Counted from the first letter of the stretch, positions 27,691-34,590 are shown. The stretch: DNA of 46,063 nucleotides from an uncultured Planctomycetales bacterium (GCA_964364455.1 CAYIMR010000004.1:1-46063); one strand, 5' to 3'. Made by a program: numbers and translations. The notes: generated by a model from the letters alone, not told the origin.

Positions 27691-27708
27691 GTACACTCCG
27701 GAGTGTAC
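27691..27708. repeat. REP-like palindrome copy 2
   Basis: GTACACTCCGGAGTGTAC (no central base). Confidence 0.9.
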
Positions 27709-27723
27709 CGGCGATCAATTAAG

Positions 27724-28530
27724 TTATCGAAACACGGAATCAATACTGTTTTTGATAAGCCCGTAGTTGAAAAGTTTCAATTCGTTCTTATCATCTAAAA
27801 ATCTTTCCACGTCTTTAGCCGCTTTCTTCAAGTCAGTTTTTTTAAGATTGTTTAACAAGAATTCTTTGATATTTTGGGCATTTACGCCAGGGGTTTTGCC
27901 TTGGGTTTGCCGGATCGCGTTATTCAACAGCTCGTAATCCGGCTCAACCTTCCTGGCCAAATACCAAATCAGATCATAAAAGTCGCGCCCTTTGATGTAT
28001 TCGCGGTAAAAGCAGGCTGAAATCTTGGTCGCGAACATGGAAGACAAATCAAAATGTCTGATATAAAACACGTAGGTCTTGTTGACCAGGCTGTTCTCGA
28101 TTTTGCCTCCCTTGGGGGGATTCGTGTCCACTTCAAGTTTGATCGATAACTTTTGCCCTGGCAGCGGCGAAATCCCCAATTCGTTTAATAAACCCGGAAA
28201 TTTCAGCATGACATTGTTGACAGTCTTCACCTTTTTCAGGATTTTTTCCATCTTGAGTCCGTAGAGTTCGATCTCCTTGTGAAGCTCCTCGCAAAGTTTC
28301 TCGAAATCATATCCGGCAGGGTTGGCCAATGAAAAATCCAGGTCTTCCGAAAAACGCCGCACATTAAACAAAATCCTTAATGCCGTTCCTCCGACAAACA
28401 CCAGGTTTTCAAACCATCCTTTGTCATGAAGTACTTTTAAGATCAAAATCTGCAAGAATTCACGCAGGCGATTCTCTTTCTCTTCCCTGGACATGGACTC
28501 CGTGAATTGTTCTTTGAGAACTTCAATCAT
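27724..28530 (-). CDS. AbiEii-family nucleotidyltransferase (type IV TA toxin)
   Basis: FVGGTALR, RFSEDLDFS, IKLEVD, K..A...R..KGRDFYDL. Confidence 0.9.
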   Translation of the reverse strand: MIEVLKEQFTESMSREEKENRLREFLQILILKVLHDKGWFENLVFVGGTALRILFNVRRFSEDLDFSLANPAGYDFEKLCEELHKEIELYGLKMEKILKKVKTVNNVMLKFPGLLNELGISPLPGQKLSIKLEVDTNPPKGGKIENSLVNKTYVFYIRHFDLSSMFATKISACFYREYIKGRDFYDLIWYLARKVEPDYELLNNAIRQTQGKTPGVNAQNIKEFLLNNLKKTDLKKAAKDVERFLDDKNELKLFNYGLIKNSIDSVFR

Positions 28531-29168
28531 GATTTTGTCTCCCGGTCCACGAAGGCGCAAAATAGCTCAAGGATCCGGATTAATTTTGGGCTGCCGTACA
28601 GCGCCGTCAATTCCATAATAAGTTTTTTATCCAGGTCTTCCAGATTCTGGAAACGATAAGATCGCTCAAAGATCTTCGAGTCAGCAACTTTAAACTTCTC
28701 TAAATTCAGATAAATAAAATCCACAACGGCTTTTTCCGGTAAAGCCATAAAGAAAGTCAAGTTTGCTTCATCTTTGAAGGTTTTGAAACCGCGAAATGCT
28801 CCCGGCTTGATATGCTGATAGATAAACGTCCCTTCCTGAGCGCTGAACCGCGTTGTCTTTTTTGTCGTGACCGAAGTCAGATCCGCCACTTTTTCAGGGA
28901 TCAATCCGTAAAAATTGAGCGCGTACTCCAGGCTGACATAAGACGGCATATACAATTGATTGGCAATAAAAGAACGGCTCGGATCAATTTTACGGTCATT
29001 TTCATTGAGTAAGTAAATGCCCCTCTTGAGCTTCACGATCAAGCCCTGTTCTTGCCAGCGATATAATTGATTCAGAATAATTTGCCGATTTTGGGAACCC
29101 CCCTCAATATTTTTACTCCAGATGATGGGTAAATGTTGATATTTATGTTTAAATTGGGTGTATTTCAT
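28527..29168 (-). CDS. AbiEi-like antitoxin/transcription regulator
   Basis: KLKRGIY, PSYVSLEYALNFYGLIPE, PEKAVVDFIY; overlaps the AbiEii start. Confidence 0.85.
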   Translation of the reverse strand: MKYTQFKHKYQHLPIIWSKNIEGGSQNRQIILNQLYRWQEQGLIVKLKRGIYLLNENDRKIDPSRSFIANQLYMPSYVSLEYALNFYGLIPEKVADLTSVTTKKTTRFSAQEGTFIYQHIKPGAFRGFKTFKDEANLTFFMALPEKAVVDFIYLNLEKFKVADSKIFERSYRFQNLEDLDKKLIMELTALYGSPKLIRILELFCAFVDRETKS

Positions 29169-29181
29169 AGTAATTCCGCTT

Positions 29182-29240
29182 AATAATCATTTATGATTAT
29201 TTATAGAAATGAGTATAACATCCCGGCTTGATGATGTCAA
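29182..29240 (-). promoter_or_regulatory. sigma-70 promoter and operator of the AbiE pair
   Basis: TTGACA-N17-TATACT with TG extension (29240-29212); palindrome AATAATCAT-TT-ATGATTATT 29182-29201. Confidence 0.8.
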
Positions 29241-29254
29241 CCCAGAATAAGCCA

Positions 29255-29273
29255 GTACACTCCCGGAGTGTCC
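29255..29273. repeat. REP-like palindrome copy 3
   Basis: GTACACTCCCGGAGTGTCC. Confidence 0.9.
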
Positions 29274-29284
29274 GGGGCCGGCGG

Positions 29285-32789: not shown

Positions 32790-32939
32790 TCACCAATCCT
32801 CCAGCATCCGTGGCACCAGATAAAACGGCATGGACAGCAGGTCGAAAGATTTTCCGGATGTCCCGATTTTTTCTGCATGTGTTATGTTGGTACCAGGTTA
32901 TAGCAAGTAATGCATGAAATACGTACCAATATATGTCAA
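32790..32939 (-). pseudogene. collapsed ATPase-type cassette remnant
   Basis: TTGACA and TTGGTAC..GTACCAA inverted repeat followed by tail KSFDLLSMPFYLVPRMLEDW* resembling DUF4143 C-termini. Confidence 0.45.
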
Positions 32940-32953
32940 TACCGAAACTACCC

Positions 32954-33817
32954 TTACTCCACTTTGCGTGCCAGGCCCTTGTCCACCAGCACCTGGTTGA
33001 GGAGCTTGCCCTTTTCGACAATGATTTCAGGGTCCGCTTCACCCGGAAGATAATAGATATCAACGGTATAACGGCCGTATTGTCCCATTTTGTATGTCTT
33101 GACCACGACCAGCGGGCGGTTCGCCCGGGCGCCTTTAAACAGCGGTTTTTCCACGACGCATTTGGCCAGCTCTCTTTCGACAAACCGTTTGGCTTTGCGT
33201 CCCGGTGAAGTCCCGGCCTCGGGCGCGTTGATGCCGCGCAGCCGCACGCGGTGTTCCTGTTTGGCCTTGAATCCGACATCGATCTCCAGATCAAACGTAT
33301 CGGCGTCAACGATCTTGATGACCTCGGCGGCGTAGGTGTAGAGCCGTTGTTTCCTGGGCCTGAGCGTCTTGCCCGCCAGAGGCGGGTTCGCGTGCGCGGC
33401 GTCCTCAACCGCGCCGTAATAATCCTTCTGGATACGCTTTGTCAGTTCATATTTGTTCCATCCGTGGCGGCAGGCCTCCTTGAGATAAAACTCCCGCGCC
33501 TTCGCGTCATGCACCGGGAGTATGCAGCAAATATACGTCCAGCTGACCACCCGGTTGCCGTGTTTCTCCGGATAGCCGCCGGGGAACGTCTTGTAAAACT
33601 GGGTGTACCTCTGCAGGGACCAGACCGGGGTTTCAATTTCGCGCGCGATATCCTTAAGGAGCATGCCGGTCGAGTCCTTATACTCCGTCGCCAGCCGACC
33701 CGCTTTCCAAAATCCGCGTACCATGGACAGCTTGTCCTCATCTTCCAGCGAGTCGTCGACGCCGGCGAGGATTGCTTTGATTTGGGCTATGATCCGCGAT
33801 TTATTTGGTTCGGTCAT
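32954..33817 (-). CDS. DUF1016 N-terminal domain fused to thermonuclease (SNase) domain
   Basis: FWKAGR, QFYKTFP, VSWTY, REFYLKEA...W; then KIVDADT, RVRLRGINAPE, YGRY, LNQVLVDKGLA. Confidence 0.75.
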   Translation of the reverse strand: MTEPNKSRIIAQIKAILAGVDDSLEDEDKLSMVRGFWKAGRLATEYKDSTGMLLKDIAREIETPVWSLQRYTQFYKTFPGGYPEKHGNRVVSWTYICCILPVHDAKAREFYLKEACRHGWNKYELTKRIQKDYYGAVEDAAHANPPLAGKTLRPRKQRLYTYAAEVIKIVDADTFDLEIDVGFKAKQEHRVRLRGINAPEAGTSPGRKAKRFVERELAKCVVEKPLFKGARANRPLVVVKTYKMGQYGRYTVDIYYLPGEADPEIIVEKGKLLNQVLVDKGLARKVE

Positions 33818-33828
33818 ATAATAAAATG

Positions 33829-33855
33829 CCAGGTACACTCCCGGAGTGTACCTGG
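33829..33855. repeat. REP-like palindrome copy 8 (downstream of RAYT)
   Basis: CCAGGTACACTCC-C-GGAGTGTACCTGG, 13-bp stem. Confidence 0.92.
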
Positions 33856-33859
33856 GGCG

Positions 33860-34543
33860 TTATTCCAATTCCAATAGTAAATGCCTGATTTCCGCTAATT
33901 CCTTTTGGTCTTCAATCCGATCTTCCACAAAGCGTCGATATTCCTCGCAACTCATATCCAATAATTCATCATAAGAACAAATTTTTTCCTTTGGGGATAC
34001 TTTCCCGCAATATTCCCGGTAGGACGAATATTCCCACTCTTCGGGGCGCTTCACTGATCCCGCGGATACAGGATTAAGATGAAGATAGCATGTCAAATGA
34101 GCAAAATACTCGTGAGAATCAATCAGGATATTCTTAAAACGCCCTCCCCATAAAGGGCCGTTTCGGGTGTATTTCAGATTAAAATAACGGCTGTAACTGT
34201 TTTGGATGTTCGCCATGAAACGCGAGATCCCGTCGTCTTTTAATTGCTTTAAAATGAAATGCACATGCGTCGGCATAAGGCAATACCCGATAATATCAAC
34301 CAATCGTTCGCTCGTTGCGGCCGCTAATGGAGCCGCGATGTCCAGGCTATCGCCCTTTTCACTCTCAAGCGGCTTCCATAATTTGGAAAATCTCGCCCCC
34401 GGTTCGCTTGTCTGATAATAGCGCATCGATTGTACGAACCGCTTGCAGTTGCGGGGATTATCAAAAATTCGGTACTGCGCGATACTTCGATTAAAAACGT
34501 GATAGTATTCTCCCGTGGTTAATATTTCCGACCGGTATGGCAT
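33860..34543 (-). CDS. REP-associated tyrosine transposase (RAYT, Y1_Tnp HUH family)
   Basis: YYHVFNR, YCLMPTHVHFIL (HUH), YSRYFN, GPLWGGRFK, YLHLNPV, WEYSSY; flanked by palindromes on both sides. Confidence 0.9.
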   Translation of the reverse strand: MPYRSEILTTGEYYHVFNRSIAQYRIFDNPRNCKRFVQSMRYYQTSEPGARFSKLWKPLESEKGDSLDIAAPLAAATSERLVDIIGYCLMPTHVHFILKQLKDDGISRFMANIQNSYSRYFNLKYTRNGPLWGGRFKNILIDSHEYFAHLTCYLHLNPVSAGSVKRPEEWEYSSYREYCGKVSPKEKICSYDELLDMSCEEYRRFVEDRIEDQKELAEIRHLLLELE

Positions 34544-34557
34544 AGCATTTTTCTTCC

Positions 34558-34590
34558 TAAGCCGGTACACTCCCGGAGTGTACCGGCTTA
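34558..34590. repeat. REP-like palindrome copy 9 (upstream of RAYT)
   Basis: TAAGCCGGTACACTCC-C-GGAGTGTACCGGCTTA, 16-bp perfect stem. Confidence 0.92.

Follow-up and report, generated by a model that had tools for sequence, protein, structure and literature searches.

Can a REP-associated tyrosine transposase (RAYT) move genes by means of the repetitive extragenic palindromes (REPs) in its surroundings? The role of RAYTs and REPs has been open for more than 10 years, and the question is posed in concrete form by a stretch of DNA of 46,063 nucleotides (nt) from an uncultured Planctomycetales bacterium (GCA_964364455.1 CAYIMR010000004.1:1-46063), referred to below as the window, which is the whole of contig C4 of a genome bin (G000; 1.60 Mb, 306 contigs, 81% complete, 51% G+C). 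Within a polysaccharide (extracellular polysaccharide, EPS) locus, the window contains an array of co-oriented, minus-strand AbiEi/AbiEii, AAA-DUF4143, and DUF1016-SNase units and remnants, contiguous with a RAYT gene and with a REP at each of the seven unit junctions. Comparison of this array with related genomes and co-occurring strains shows that gain, loss, duplication, and permutation of units take place at the REPs, which form the physical joints of a modular island with fast turnover. As to the agent that works at these joints, single-strand exchange by the RAYT is the account tentatively preferred here.

The window was compared with a 9.6-kb contig from another genus (L028; contig C8 of the 2.4-Mb genome G042/G062), with a near-identical metagenome contig of 1572 nt (L032), with the genomes G004 and G006 (the latter through its locus L029), and with population data consisting of contigs from four groundwater runs (four studies) that were placed on positions 26000-36500 at 90% likeness. 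The run data are graph contigs of mixed populations. At least part of the stretch is contained in 20 runs of eight studies (groundwater, aquifer, and drinking water); at least half of its sampled words were present in 13 runs, six of which (two studies) reached 0.92-0.94, and the best-holding runs may include the source sample. Profile libraries used for gene calls were Pfam, NCBIfam, and PADLOC. Joint ends, mismatches in the L032 alignment, and distances between stop codons and REPs were counted by hand and may be off by a unit.

The gene calls and their common orientation, as proposed in a reading made from the sequence alone (the sequence-only reading), were confirmed by all three libraries, and all genes of the array lie on the minus strand. 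According to PADLOC, the cargo consists of AbiE plus the candidate single-gene systems PDC-S01 (both AAA_14+DUF4143 genes) and PDC-S02 (the DUF1016 gene). From left to right, the array and its flanking genes are as follows.

26887-27696, minus strand: wzm (ABC-2 membrane protein), flanking the array on the left, with its likely ATG start near 27664 after an AAGGAG ribosome-binding site
27724-29168, minus strand: AbiEi and AbiEii module (AbiEi 28527-29168; AbiEii 27724-28560), with its own upstream region (29169-29249)
29285-30598, minus strand: AAA_a, an AAA_14+DUF4143 ATPase (PADLOC candidate PDC-S01), whose upstream region reaches 30712
30728-30925, minus strand: remnant of a third DUF4143-type gene, whose last 25 codons match the end of a G006 protein with 92% identity
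30965-32335, minus strand: AAA_b, an AAA_14+DUF4143 ATPase (PDC-S01), 33% identical to AAA_a
32472-32600, minus strand: remnant of a further DUF4143-type gene
32673-32953, minus strand: non-coding stretch in two parts, of which 32673-32750 precedes another gene in L032 and 32751-32874 is shared with G004
32954-33838, minus strand: DUF1016_N+SNase gene (PADLOC PDC-S02), with 83% protein identity to a G004 gene at the same place relative to the epimerase
33860-34543, minus strand: RAYT (TnpA_REP-like Y1/HUH protein), by Pfam, NCBIfam, and structure match
34664-35620, minus strand: NAD-dependent epimerase, the first gene of a flank conserved in the genus

The segment 32751-32874 is a decayed second copy of the 3' end of the SNase gene, and 32673-32750 may be a promoter- or operator-like element. 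Positions 32450-32536, comprising the 3' end of a remnant and the REP at 32453, repeat 30925-31011 with 87% identity. No second copy of the 30728-30925 remnant was found in the genome, in which the array units are likewise unique.

The RAYT scores 30.2 bits with Pfam Y1_Tnp (cut-off 23) and 66.1 bits with NCBIfam REP_Tyr_transpos, under the cut-off of 80 for that family, of which it is therefore regarded as a divergent member. Its best match among solved structures is E. coli TnpA_REP (4ER8, E 1.1e-5); its H-V-H motif aligns to the H-M-H of TnpA_REP, and a tyrosine-containing Y..NPV stretch is also aligned. The gene looks intact, and it is present in single copy (one match in the 1.60-Mb genome; tblastn returned only the gene itself).

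The palindrome was searched for with the pattern GTACACTCC-N-GGAGTGTAC, allowing up to two mismatches, which gave eight matches in the window, at 1099, 29255, 30928, 32420, 32453, 32654, 33833, and 34565, and no match of any kind in 100 shuffles. The recurrence of the palindrome and its bracketing of the RAYT, both remarked on from the sequence alone, were thus found at the expected positions. The copies listed at that time are real, including the half copy at 30713-30727, but the one at 1099 had been missed and 32412 is the extended foot of the 32420 copy. The REPs of the window are listed below.

1099-1117: outlying REP, at the distal end of the EPS cluster, with a Wzy_C-type gene (1139-2482) on one side and an MNT/HEPN-like pair on the other
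27691-27708: REP without the central base, 16 nt past the AbiEii stop codon
29255-29273: REP, 12 nt past the AAA_a stop codon, common to the AAA_a and AbiE homology blocks
30713-30727: half REP with one arm only; a full REP is found at this position in L028 and in two runs
30928-30946: REP, 19 nt past the AAA_b stop codon
32420-32471: REP doublet, with members at 32420-32438 and 32453-32471
32654-32672: REP, also found at the corresponding place in G004; L032 diverges within about 5 nt of its outer foot
33833-33851: REP, 9 nt past the RAYT stop codon, with 13-nt perfect arms (-12.9 kcal/mol)
34558-34590 (core 34565): longest REP, upstream of the RAYT, with 16-nt perfect arms (-16.7 kcal/mol)

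The copies are nearly perfect palindromes, both feet reading G(T/G)AC, and a GTAG tag and bulged stem are not present. Folded as DNA, the fullest REPs are perfect hairpins of 27-33 nt, and the two longest and most stable of them flank the RAYT. The REP core is located 2-19 nt behind the stop codon in six of the seven island units, and the next gene after each REP has 80-330 nt of upstream sequence of its own, with a TTGACA-type box before AbiEi. Each unit is a self-contained defence or toxin-antitoxin (TA) gene or gene pair that has its own upstream region and a REP behind its stop codon. Independently of any exchange, the REPs probably also serve as 3' hairpins that insulate or stabilise the transcript of each unit. 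The central base of the REP was considered as an orientation mark and rejected, as it differs between corresponding REPs of the window genome and L028. At about 2920-2950 of L157 (G061:C66), a different palindrome with a similar centre occupies the place at which the window has its half REP, upstream of an AAA_a gene that has no REP.

Reordering of units is seen in L028, the contig that holds all four REP matches of the G042/G062 genome. Its order is a remnant, a degenerate REP, an internally deleted AAA_a, a REP, an internally deleted AAA_b, a REP, AbiEi-AbiEii, a REP, an intact AAA_a, a REP, and then rmlD and other sugar genes. The AbiE block is 88% identical to that of the window at the nucleotide level (AbiEii 91% at the protein level), and the intact AAA_a is 92% identical in nucleotides and 95% in protein; the order is AAA_a-REP-AbiE in the window versus AbiE-REP-AAA_a in L028, so that the AbiE module takes a different position. 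Both homology blocks (window positions 29246-30724 and 27693-29273) have both of their ends inside REPs, and in both genomes the REP is the overlap shared by neighbouring blocks. One of the breaks falls at the hairpin apex, because the half REP at 30713 of the window corresponds to the right arm of a full REP in L028; on the other side, the sequences part just past the REP foot. A REP arm is also duplicated in L028. Either the units moved together with their REPs, or the contig has been mis-binned.

The array of G006 consists of an AAA_b fragment, a REP, an Acyl_transf_3 gene, a REP, the counterpart of the 30728-30925 remnant running into a DUF4143 fragment, and DUF1016; the remnant is thus on the other side of AAA_b compared with the window. 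The acyltransferase gene is tightly bracketed by the two REPs and stands between units, and a surface-modification gene can therefore be REP-bounded as well.

In L032, only 3 of 684 positions of the RAYT differ from the window genome, versus 19 of 306 in the adjoining epimerase (alignment A1), and this step in divergence falls at the REP upstream of the RAYT (34558-34590), which suggests a recent exchange of the RAYT block. This REP and its 21-nt linker are tandemly duplicated in L032, the DUF1016 gene is cut down to approximately its first 45 and last 105 bases, and past the promoter-like stretch that both have, the alignment ends about 5 nt or less from the outer foot of the 32654 REP, where L032 continues into another gene that was not found in the window genome. 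In G004, the epimerase is followed by a PDC-S01 gene in the place of the RAYT and without REPs, the DUF1016-SNase gene (83% at the protein level), a decayed stretch as at 32751-32874, a REP as at 32654, about 55 nt matching 32600-32650, and an unrelated gene of 457 amino acids. The DUF1016 gene and the 32654 REP are therefore older than the split between the two genomes, since both stand at the corresponding place in G004.

The contigs of the four runs yielded 15 joints. Loss of AbiE was found in two forms: in X16, wzm leads through a REP-REP doublet to AAA_a (136 and 305 letters on the two sides), and in X12 wzm is joined by 7 new letters to the REP of AAA_a, one REP being left. AbiE and AAA_a are both absent from a variant found in X12 and X13, two separate studies, in which wzm is joined by 11 new letters to a REP and the 3' flank of an AAA_b-type gene (depths 10.5 and 11.4). 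Three population joints break at 27674, just 5' of the wzm ribosome-binding site. The 30728-30925 remnant is absent, and the half REP whole, in X16 and also in X12, in the latter with 7 letters shared between the sides. Pieces of equal depth in X12 (7.68), which probably form one contig, place this remnant behind a REP and next to DUF1016. The DUF1016 deletion of L032 type was found in X16 as well.

Taken together, 17 of the 30 joint ends are at most 25 nt from a REP core, zones that make up 5.5% of the stretch and in which about 1.7 ends would be expected, an enrichment that may be inflated in that REPs are the only repeats in the stretch and contig pieces may map across copies. At least one end is near a REP in 11 of the 15 joints, and when the four joints with a shorter side of less than 30 letters are left out, 11 of 22 ends are near a REP. 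In three joints, both ends are more than 35 nt from any REP: a 61-nt skip in the 30728-30925 remnant, the internal DUF1016 deletion, and 35605-36160, which covers a variable 23S-IVS gene. Two apparent joints, 32395>34560 and 32743>34560, were considered as a loss of DUF1016 and RAYT and rejected, as their REP sides of 24 and 22 letters probably result from cross-copy mapping; none of the accepted joints points to a strain without the RAYT. Segments of the stretch that had no depth in some runs were left out of the evidence. The comparison for which the sequence-only reading had called, namely of cargo gain, loss, and reordering with breakpoints in the palindrome, thus turned out positive in L028, L032, G006, and the run contigs; the cassette-like architecture is therefore real, and the REPs are its joints. 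The interpretation in that reading, by which the RAYT would insert, excise, or shuffle cassettes at the hairpins as an integrase does at attC, is supported in part, as recombination by the host would account for much of the same data.

In the genome as a whole, 27 REP matches with at most one mismatch were found on 13 contigs. Eight of them are within 27691-34583 (6.9 kb), corresponding to about 1.2 per kb versus 0.012 per kb elsewhere, or an approximately 97-fold enrichment. The remaining 19 matches represent 14 sites, four of which adjoin TA or defence-type genes.

Window left end: REP site next to an MNT/HEPN pair
C16: REP site next to PemK/MazF, beside metG
C202: REP site next to AAA_14-DUF4143 and Fic
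C270: REP site next to a weak DUF6036 nucleotidyltransferase match

The REP is therefore not confined to cargo borders, yet it is strongly concentrated in the island. The statement that it never lies inside a gene is correct for the window, but elsewhere in the genome REPs occur in frame inside long open reading frames (ORFs); a scatter over ordinary sites, envisaged beforehand as speaking against a cassette array, does exist in the form of ordinary intergenic and in-gene copies, and similar cargo is found without REPs in the window locus, G004, and G061. In-frame REPs within long housekeeping ORFs were observed on contigs C23 (L117 443-506), C18 (L118), C77 (L120), and C169 (L119) of G000, a situation that presumably resembles the in-frame palindromic elements of Rickettsia. 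A REP doublet in a 3-hydroxyacyl-CoA dehydrogenase fusion amounts to two short peptide insertions, which are present in G001 and absent from G004 and G006. Near-identical sets of three genes (translations compared by eye) with the same REP site were found at C3 42988-44707 and C57 3838-5483, and strain heterogeneity in the bin is therefore indicated. The exact 19-nt REP was found in five stretches among genome contigs, of which two (one Roizmanbacteria record) were set aside as unrelated for their A/T centre and AT-rich flanks. Viral contigs were uninformative, with 27 contigs carrying one REP match each and no arrays among them.

Full-length orthologs of the RAYT, with 38-51% identity, are present in other genera of the family and order, and at least three of them (L014, L015, and L016) are bracketed by different palindromes of their own. 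The 27 REPs of the window genome compare with 6, 6, 5, 0, and 0 in five same-genus genomes (61-93% complete), in which no RAYT ortholog was found but only distant Y1 matches or none; among the same-genus relatives compared, REP abundance thus tracks the presence of the RAYT. The enzyme, its copy number, the bracketing, and the dispersion mark the locus as a genuine REP/RAYT system. Beside the RAYT ortholog of L016 (G019:C2, 4400-10100), three copies of another palindrome lie between NYN, Schlafen/AlbA_2-like, and PIN genes, and a third palindrome family brackets housekeeping genes farther on.

The Pfam scan that defined the EPS locus around the array covered 43 of the 44 window ORFs (all except 45091-46062). 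On the right side it identified Wza-like, Wzc-like, and RpoN genes and relatives of these, as well as the epimerase, and on the left side two wzm/wzt pairs, many glycosyltransferases, and one Wzy_C-type gene. Four same-genus genomes share the gene order of the right flank, from 35620 to the window end (46063). The whole part to the left of about 32600, including wzm, is peculiar to the window genome; no ortholog of wzm was found in the five same-genus genomes. The island occupies the seam between a conserved EPS export block and a variable EPS synthesis block. The proposal that it interrupts an operon between the epimerase and wzm is consequently correct only in part: the right flank is conserved in the genus, and wzm itself belongs to the genome-specific part.

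Several further features of the locus were recorded. The wzm/wzt pairs are in tandem (21984-27696), 26887-27696 pairing with 24143-25384 and 23236-24090 with 21984-23234, and the wzm copies are 25% identical. An ATPase_2+DUF234 gene (25470-26828; PADLOC candidate PDC-S27) is located between wzm and wzt with no REP on either side. A gene for a 23S-IVS protein (bAvd-like; 35681-36046), also without a REP, lies between the epimerase and the next conserved gene; nothing at this spot matched it in four same-genus genomes, and contigs of two runs pass over it. Within 18099-20792, an Acyl_transf_3 gene is broken into 20367-20792 and 18099-18872 by a DDE transposase (19078-20340, plus strand). At the end of both the EPS cluster and the contig, a HEPN gene (36-470) and a nucleotidyltransferase gene (460-1014) form a pair beside the REP at 1099, and the array may therefore continue past the window.

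The locus is a REPtron that has been extended through a row of self-contained defence, TA, and surface-gene units and so has grown into a modular array. As to the agent of exchange, it is tentatively proposed, at somewhat less than an even chance, that the RAYT mediates single-strand exchange at REPs. It would act on REP hairpins exposed as single strands, such as those of the lagging-strand template or of DNA entering the cell, by cutting them and linking the cut REP to a second one. By this route, a unit with its two REPs could be released as a circle of single-stranded DNA and inserted elsewhere at a REP, or be traded from strain to strain, in a manner resembling the peel-and-paste of IS200/IS605 and the attC x attC exchange of integrons. 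This account is favoured because the array is contiguous with the only RAYT and the best hairpins flank that gene; because several breaks are at the outer foot of the palindrome and the empty AbiE site keeps both REPs; and because the RAYT block looks recently exchanged and E. coli TnpA_REP cuts and recombines REPs in vitro. A wider version of the proposal is doubtful as a whole: that the locus is an integrase-free, integron-like platform, in which a domesticated RAYT cuts and rejoins single-stranded REPs and thereby takes up, removes, and rearranges promoter-bearing defence, TA, and surface genes, each tagged by a 3' REP, which would also travel with their REPs from strain to strain and even from genus to genus.

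A number of observations weigh against exchange by the RAYT, in addition to the possible cross-copy mapping of contig pieces. No circular junction or nick was observed in the contigs, which are unable to show one. The breakpoints are not at one fixed position, and some are at the hairpin apex (the half REP at 30713 and the duplicated arm of L028); these apex breaks therefore look more like slippage or processing of a hairpin than like Y1 cleavage at the foot. Many remnants arose from internal deletions away from REPs. In the L028 genome, the completeness of which is not given, an array is present and no ortholog of the window RAYT was found. All nine orthologous RAYT loci lack an array, taken as at least three copies of their own flanking palindrome within 10 kb, in a scan for perfect arms of at least 8 nt and loops of up to 4 nt that degenerate arrays could escape; an array is not a general habit of the RAYT clade. 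Cargo-like genes occur without REPs in the same locus (25470-26828 and 35681-36046), as do the PDC-S01 gene and a 74% identical AbiE pair in G004, and in G061, which belongs to another genus, an AAA_a gene with 89% nucleotide identity has no REP behind it and another palindrome upstream. Four of the 14 sites outside the array lie between ordinary genes (two of them, C3 and C57, being strain copies of one locus) and six lie inside long ORFs, namely a 3-hydroxyacyl-CoA dehydrogenase fusion, a TPP enzyme, a histidine kinase (twice), and a tRNA methyltransferase-type gene, the sixth being a one-mismatch match that possibly arose by chance. Finally, in the available parts of the sources, PMC3333891 among them, REPINs are said to duplicate extremely slowly and the REPtron is said not to transpose as a unit.

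Recombination driven by the host explains the data nearly as well as the RAYT does, and better with respect to apex breaks, duplicated arms, and general decay; it is regarded as a serious possibility, if a slightly fainter one. The RAYT would in that case only seed REPs, preferentially nearby, and the resulting 19-33-nt hairpins would be portable homology and fragile sites, between which RecA-dependent crossover, replication slippage, template switching, and hairpin processing delete, duplicate, or swap units. Between strains, REPs and neighbouring units would be the exchange arms. The half REP at 30713, with 7 nt shared between the sides of the matching joint, is in line with such events, as are the crossover at the hairpin apex (window versus L028), the duplicated arm in L028, and the tandem REP duplication in L032; duplications mediated by REPs also occur in enterobacteria. 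A REP x REP crossover should yield deletions in which a single REP is left, as in some of the variants, the internal deletions that do not involve REPs show that the island is simply unstable, and arrays occur in genomes in which no cognate RAYT was found. Against these points, the empty AbiE site of X16, with both REPs, is not the product of a REP x REP crossover from a window-like parent, and permutation would need excision and re-entry of non-replicating circles through homology of about 20-30 nt, which is inefficient. Moreover, at least five breakpoints are at the outer foot of the extended palindrome (29248, 29250, 34560 with its two short-sided joints, and the divergence points of L032 and L028). 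The lower REP numbers in relatives without a found RAYT also speak for the enzyme, although they tie to it the upkeep of REPs and not the exchange of modules.

It is improbable that REPs are passive colonisers, with units coming and going by ordinary island dynamics and REPs settling afterwards, as 3' hairpins, in non-coding gaps that follow stop codons, for the most part close to the RAYT. Genes of the same cargo families are indeed found without REPs in the window locus, G004, and G061, REPs do occur at ordinary intergenic sites, their distance of 2-19 nt from the stop codon in six of seven units fits a role at the 3' end, and the region is a classic variable one, with a conserved Wza/Wzc flank against variable glycosyltransferases. 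Late settlement is, however, difficult to reconcile with homology blocks of window and L028 that end inside REPs on both sides, the REP being the overlap of neighbouring blocks. All four G042 REP matches are in the array contig, so that the REPs travelled with the units, and a bare REP-REP doublet at the empty AbiE site and the approximately 97-fold local enrichment are equally unfavourable to it.

Far less credible is a selfish cargo, in which the AAA_14+DUF4143 genes (nuclease-fold) or other units would target REP-like hairpins as landing sites. A REP is situated 12-39 nt past the stop codon at four of five DUF4143-type loci (AAA_a, AAA_b, the 32472-32600 remnant, and C202; not C2), the 30728-30925 remnant is a further such case, and the PDC-S01 gene of G004 stands exactly at the place of the RAYT; however, the same kind of boundary is seen for AbiE, DUF1016, the acyltransferase, and the RAYT itself, this REP does not lie downstream of the G004 and G061 copies, and the family is not known to have such an activity. 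Mis-assembly or mis-binned chimeras at short repeats can be dismissed almost entirely: the bin is fragmented (306 contigs) and contains strain duplicates (C3 and C57), the run data are de Bruijn contigs with four joints that have sides of less than 30 letters, and the L028 contig, which holds all REPs of its genome, may be mis-binned, but the well-covered runs (13 with at least half of the sampled words, six at 0.92-0.94), the novel letters between the sides of several joints, one of which recurs in two studies, the same units and REPs in the independent records L028, L029/G006, L032, and G004, and the length of most REP cores, shorter than the 31-letter words, all argue against it.

Among known systems, the REPtrons of E. 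coli, Pseudomonas, and Stenotrophomonas resemble the locus in having a single-copy Y1/HUH gene bracketed by its own palindrome, with variable numbers of REPs alongside; the same REP is also dispersed in the genome, with lower REP counts in relatives without a found gene. Unlike in REPtrons, protein-coding units (AbiE, PDC-S01, PDC-S02, and remnants) are present between successive REPs of the window and are permuted between strains. The window REP differs also in being near-perfect, in its G(T/G)AC feet, in the lack of a GTAG tag and of a bulge, in its low number of copies (only about 27), and in being located in frame inside genes in some cases. A GTAG (or CGTC) tag at the 5' foot and a bulged stem are, in the available part of the literature, features of groups 2 and 3 and not of all RAYTs (for GTAG, PMC3333891). 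As far as the accessible text of PMC3333891 and PMC6006769 goes, some E. coli strains have lost the REPtron gene by precise excision, and others carry the toxin-antitoxin pair hicAB in place of the entire REPtron. E. coli TnpA_REP cleaves both sides of REPs in vitro and joins the strands, and the tandem duplication of a REP and its linker in L032 is of the type of product made by that enzyme in vitro, both according to the portion of PMC3333891 at hand. In the same partial source, among others, the mechanism of REP dissemination is stated as unresolved and the REPtron as not itself mobile.

IS200/IS605 elements and their cargo-bearing derivatives share with the window, as far as the sources consulted in part describe them, a related Y1 enzyme, subterminal hairpin ends, and the property that in principle anything between two hairpins can be carried. 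They differ in that the window enzyme is single-copy, the locus does not move as a whole, one palindrome provides all hairpins where the elements have different left and right ends, and many units stand in series.

Sedentary chromosomal integrons are similar in that their units point in one direction, carry a hairpin-forming site at the 3' end, vary in presence and order, and include TA and defence genes. Integron sites recombine as folded single strands, and the window REPs could act likewise. The attC sites are 57-141 nt long and imperfect, with R and L boxes and extrahelical bases, and an integron also has IntI, attI, and Pc, its cassettes being mostly promoterless and read from a common promoter; the array has no attI or Pc, its sites are near-perfect hairpins of 19-33 nt, and the candidate enzyme is an HUH nuclease. 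No integron integrase domain was found by Pfam in 43 of the 44 window ORFs, the genome as a whole not having been searched for the family; no tyrosine recombinase was seen, and the units have upstream regions of their own, from which promoters of their own may be predicted. The locus is not an integron, given that an integrase was not seen, that the sites differ in kind, and that the units probably carry promoters themselves, although in its operation the array may still work like one. Of the earlier designation as integron-like without an integrase, the cassette-like modular array stands, but the defining features of an integron (integrase and attC-type sites) are lacking. Gene modules, often TA, between short sites or repeats are also exchanged among replicons or strains as Xer-dependent pdif modules of Acinetobacter plasmids and as the 'minimal mobile elements' of Neisseria; these make use of XerC/D or of homologous recombination after transformation, and their sites are structured differently from those of the window array.

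In full-text literature searches (titles and openings of abstracts, with subscription journals thinly covered), no REP-bounded gene cassettes moved by a RAYT were described. The nearest idea encountered in print is that of the procA clusters of marine picocyanobacteria with TnpA_REP, in which, according to the available part of 10.1101/2020.03.09.984088, RAYT-family genes are interspersed with an expanding and diversifying set of genes. The authors of that work proposed diversifying recombination driven by the RAYT, and in a later note of their own found no strong evidence for or against causality. Unlike the window, the procA clusters contain many tnpA_REP copies and fragments and small peptide genes, and REP-bounded cassettes are not described for them in that part of the source.

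The array adds to these systems a natural population with visible turnover of REP-bounded units, which makes the question of whether a RAYT can move genes testable with one enzyme, one hairpin of 19-33 nt, and one marker. If host recombination is the agent, REPs are still shown to structure a hotspot of defence and EPS genes. If the RAYT is the agent, it would explain the integrase-free assembly of defence islands in streamlined groundwater bacteria and would constitute a third hairpin-based gene-shuffling system, beside integrons and IS200/IS605.

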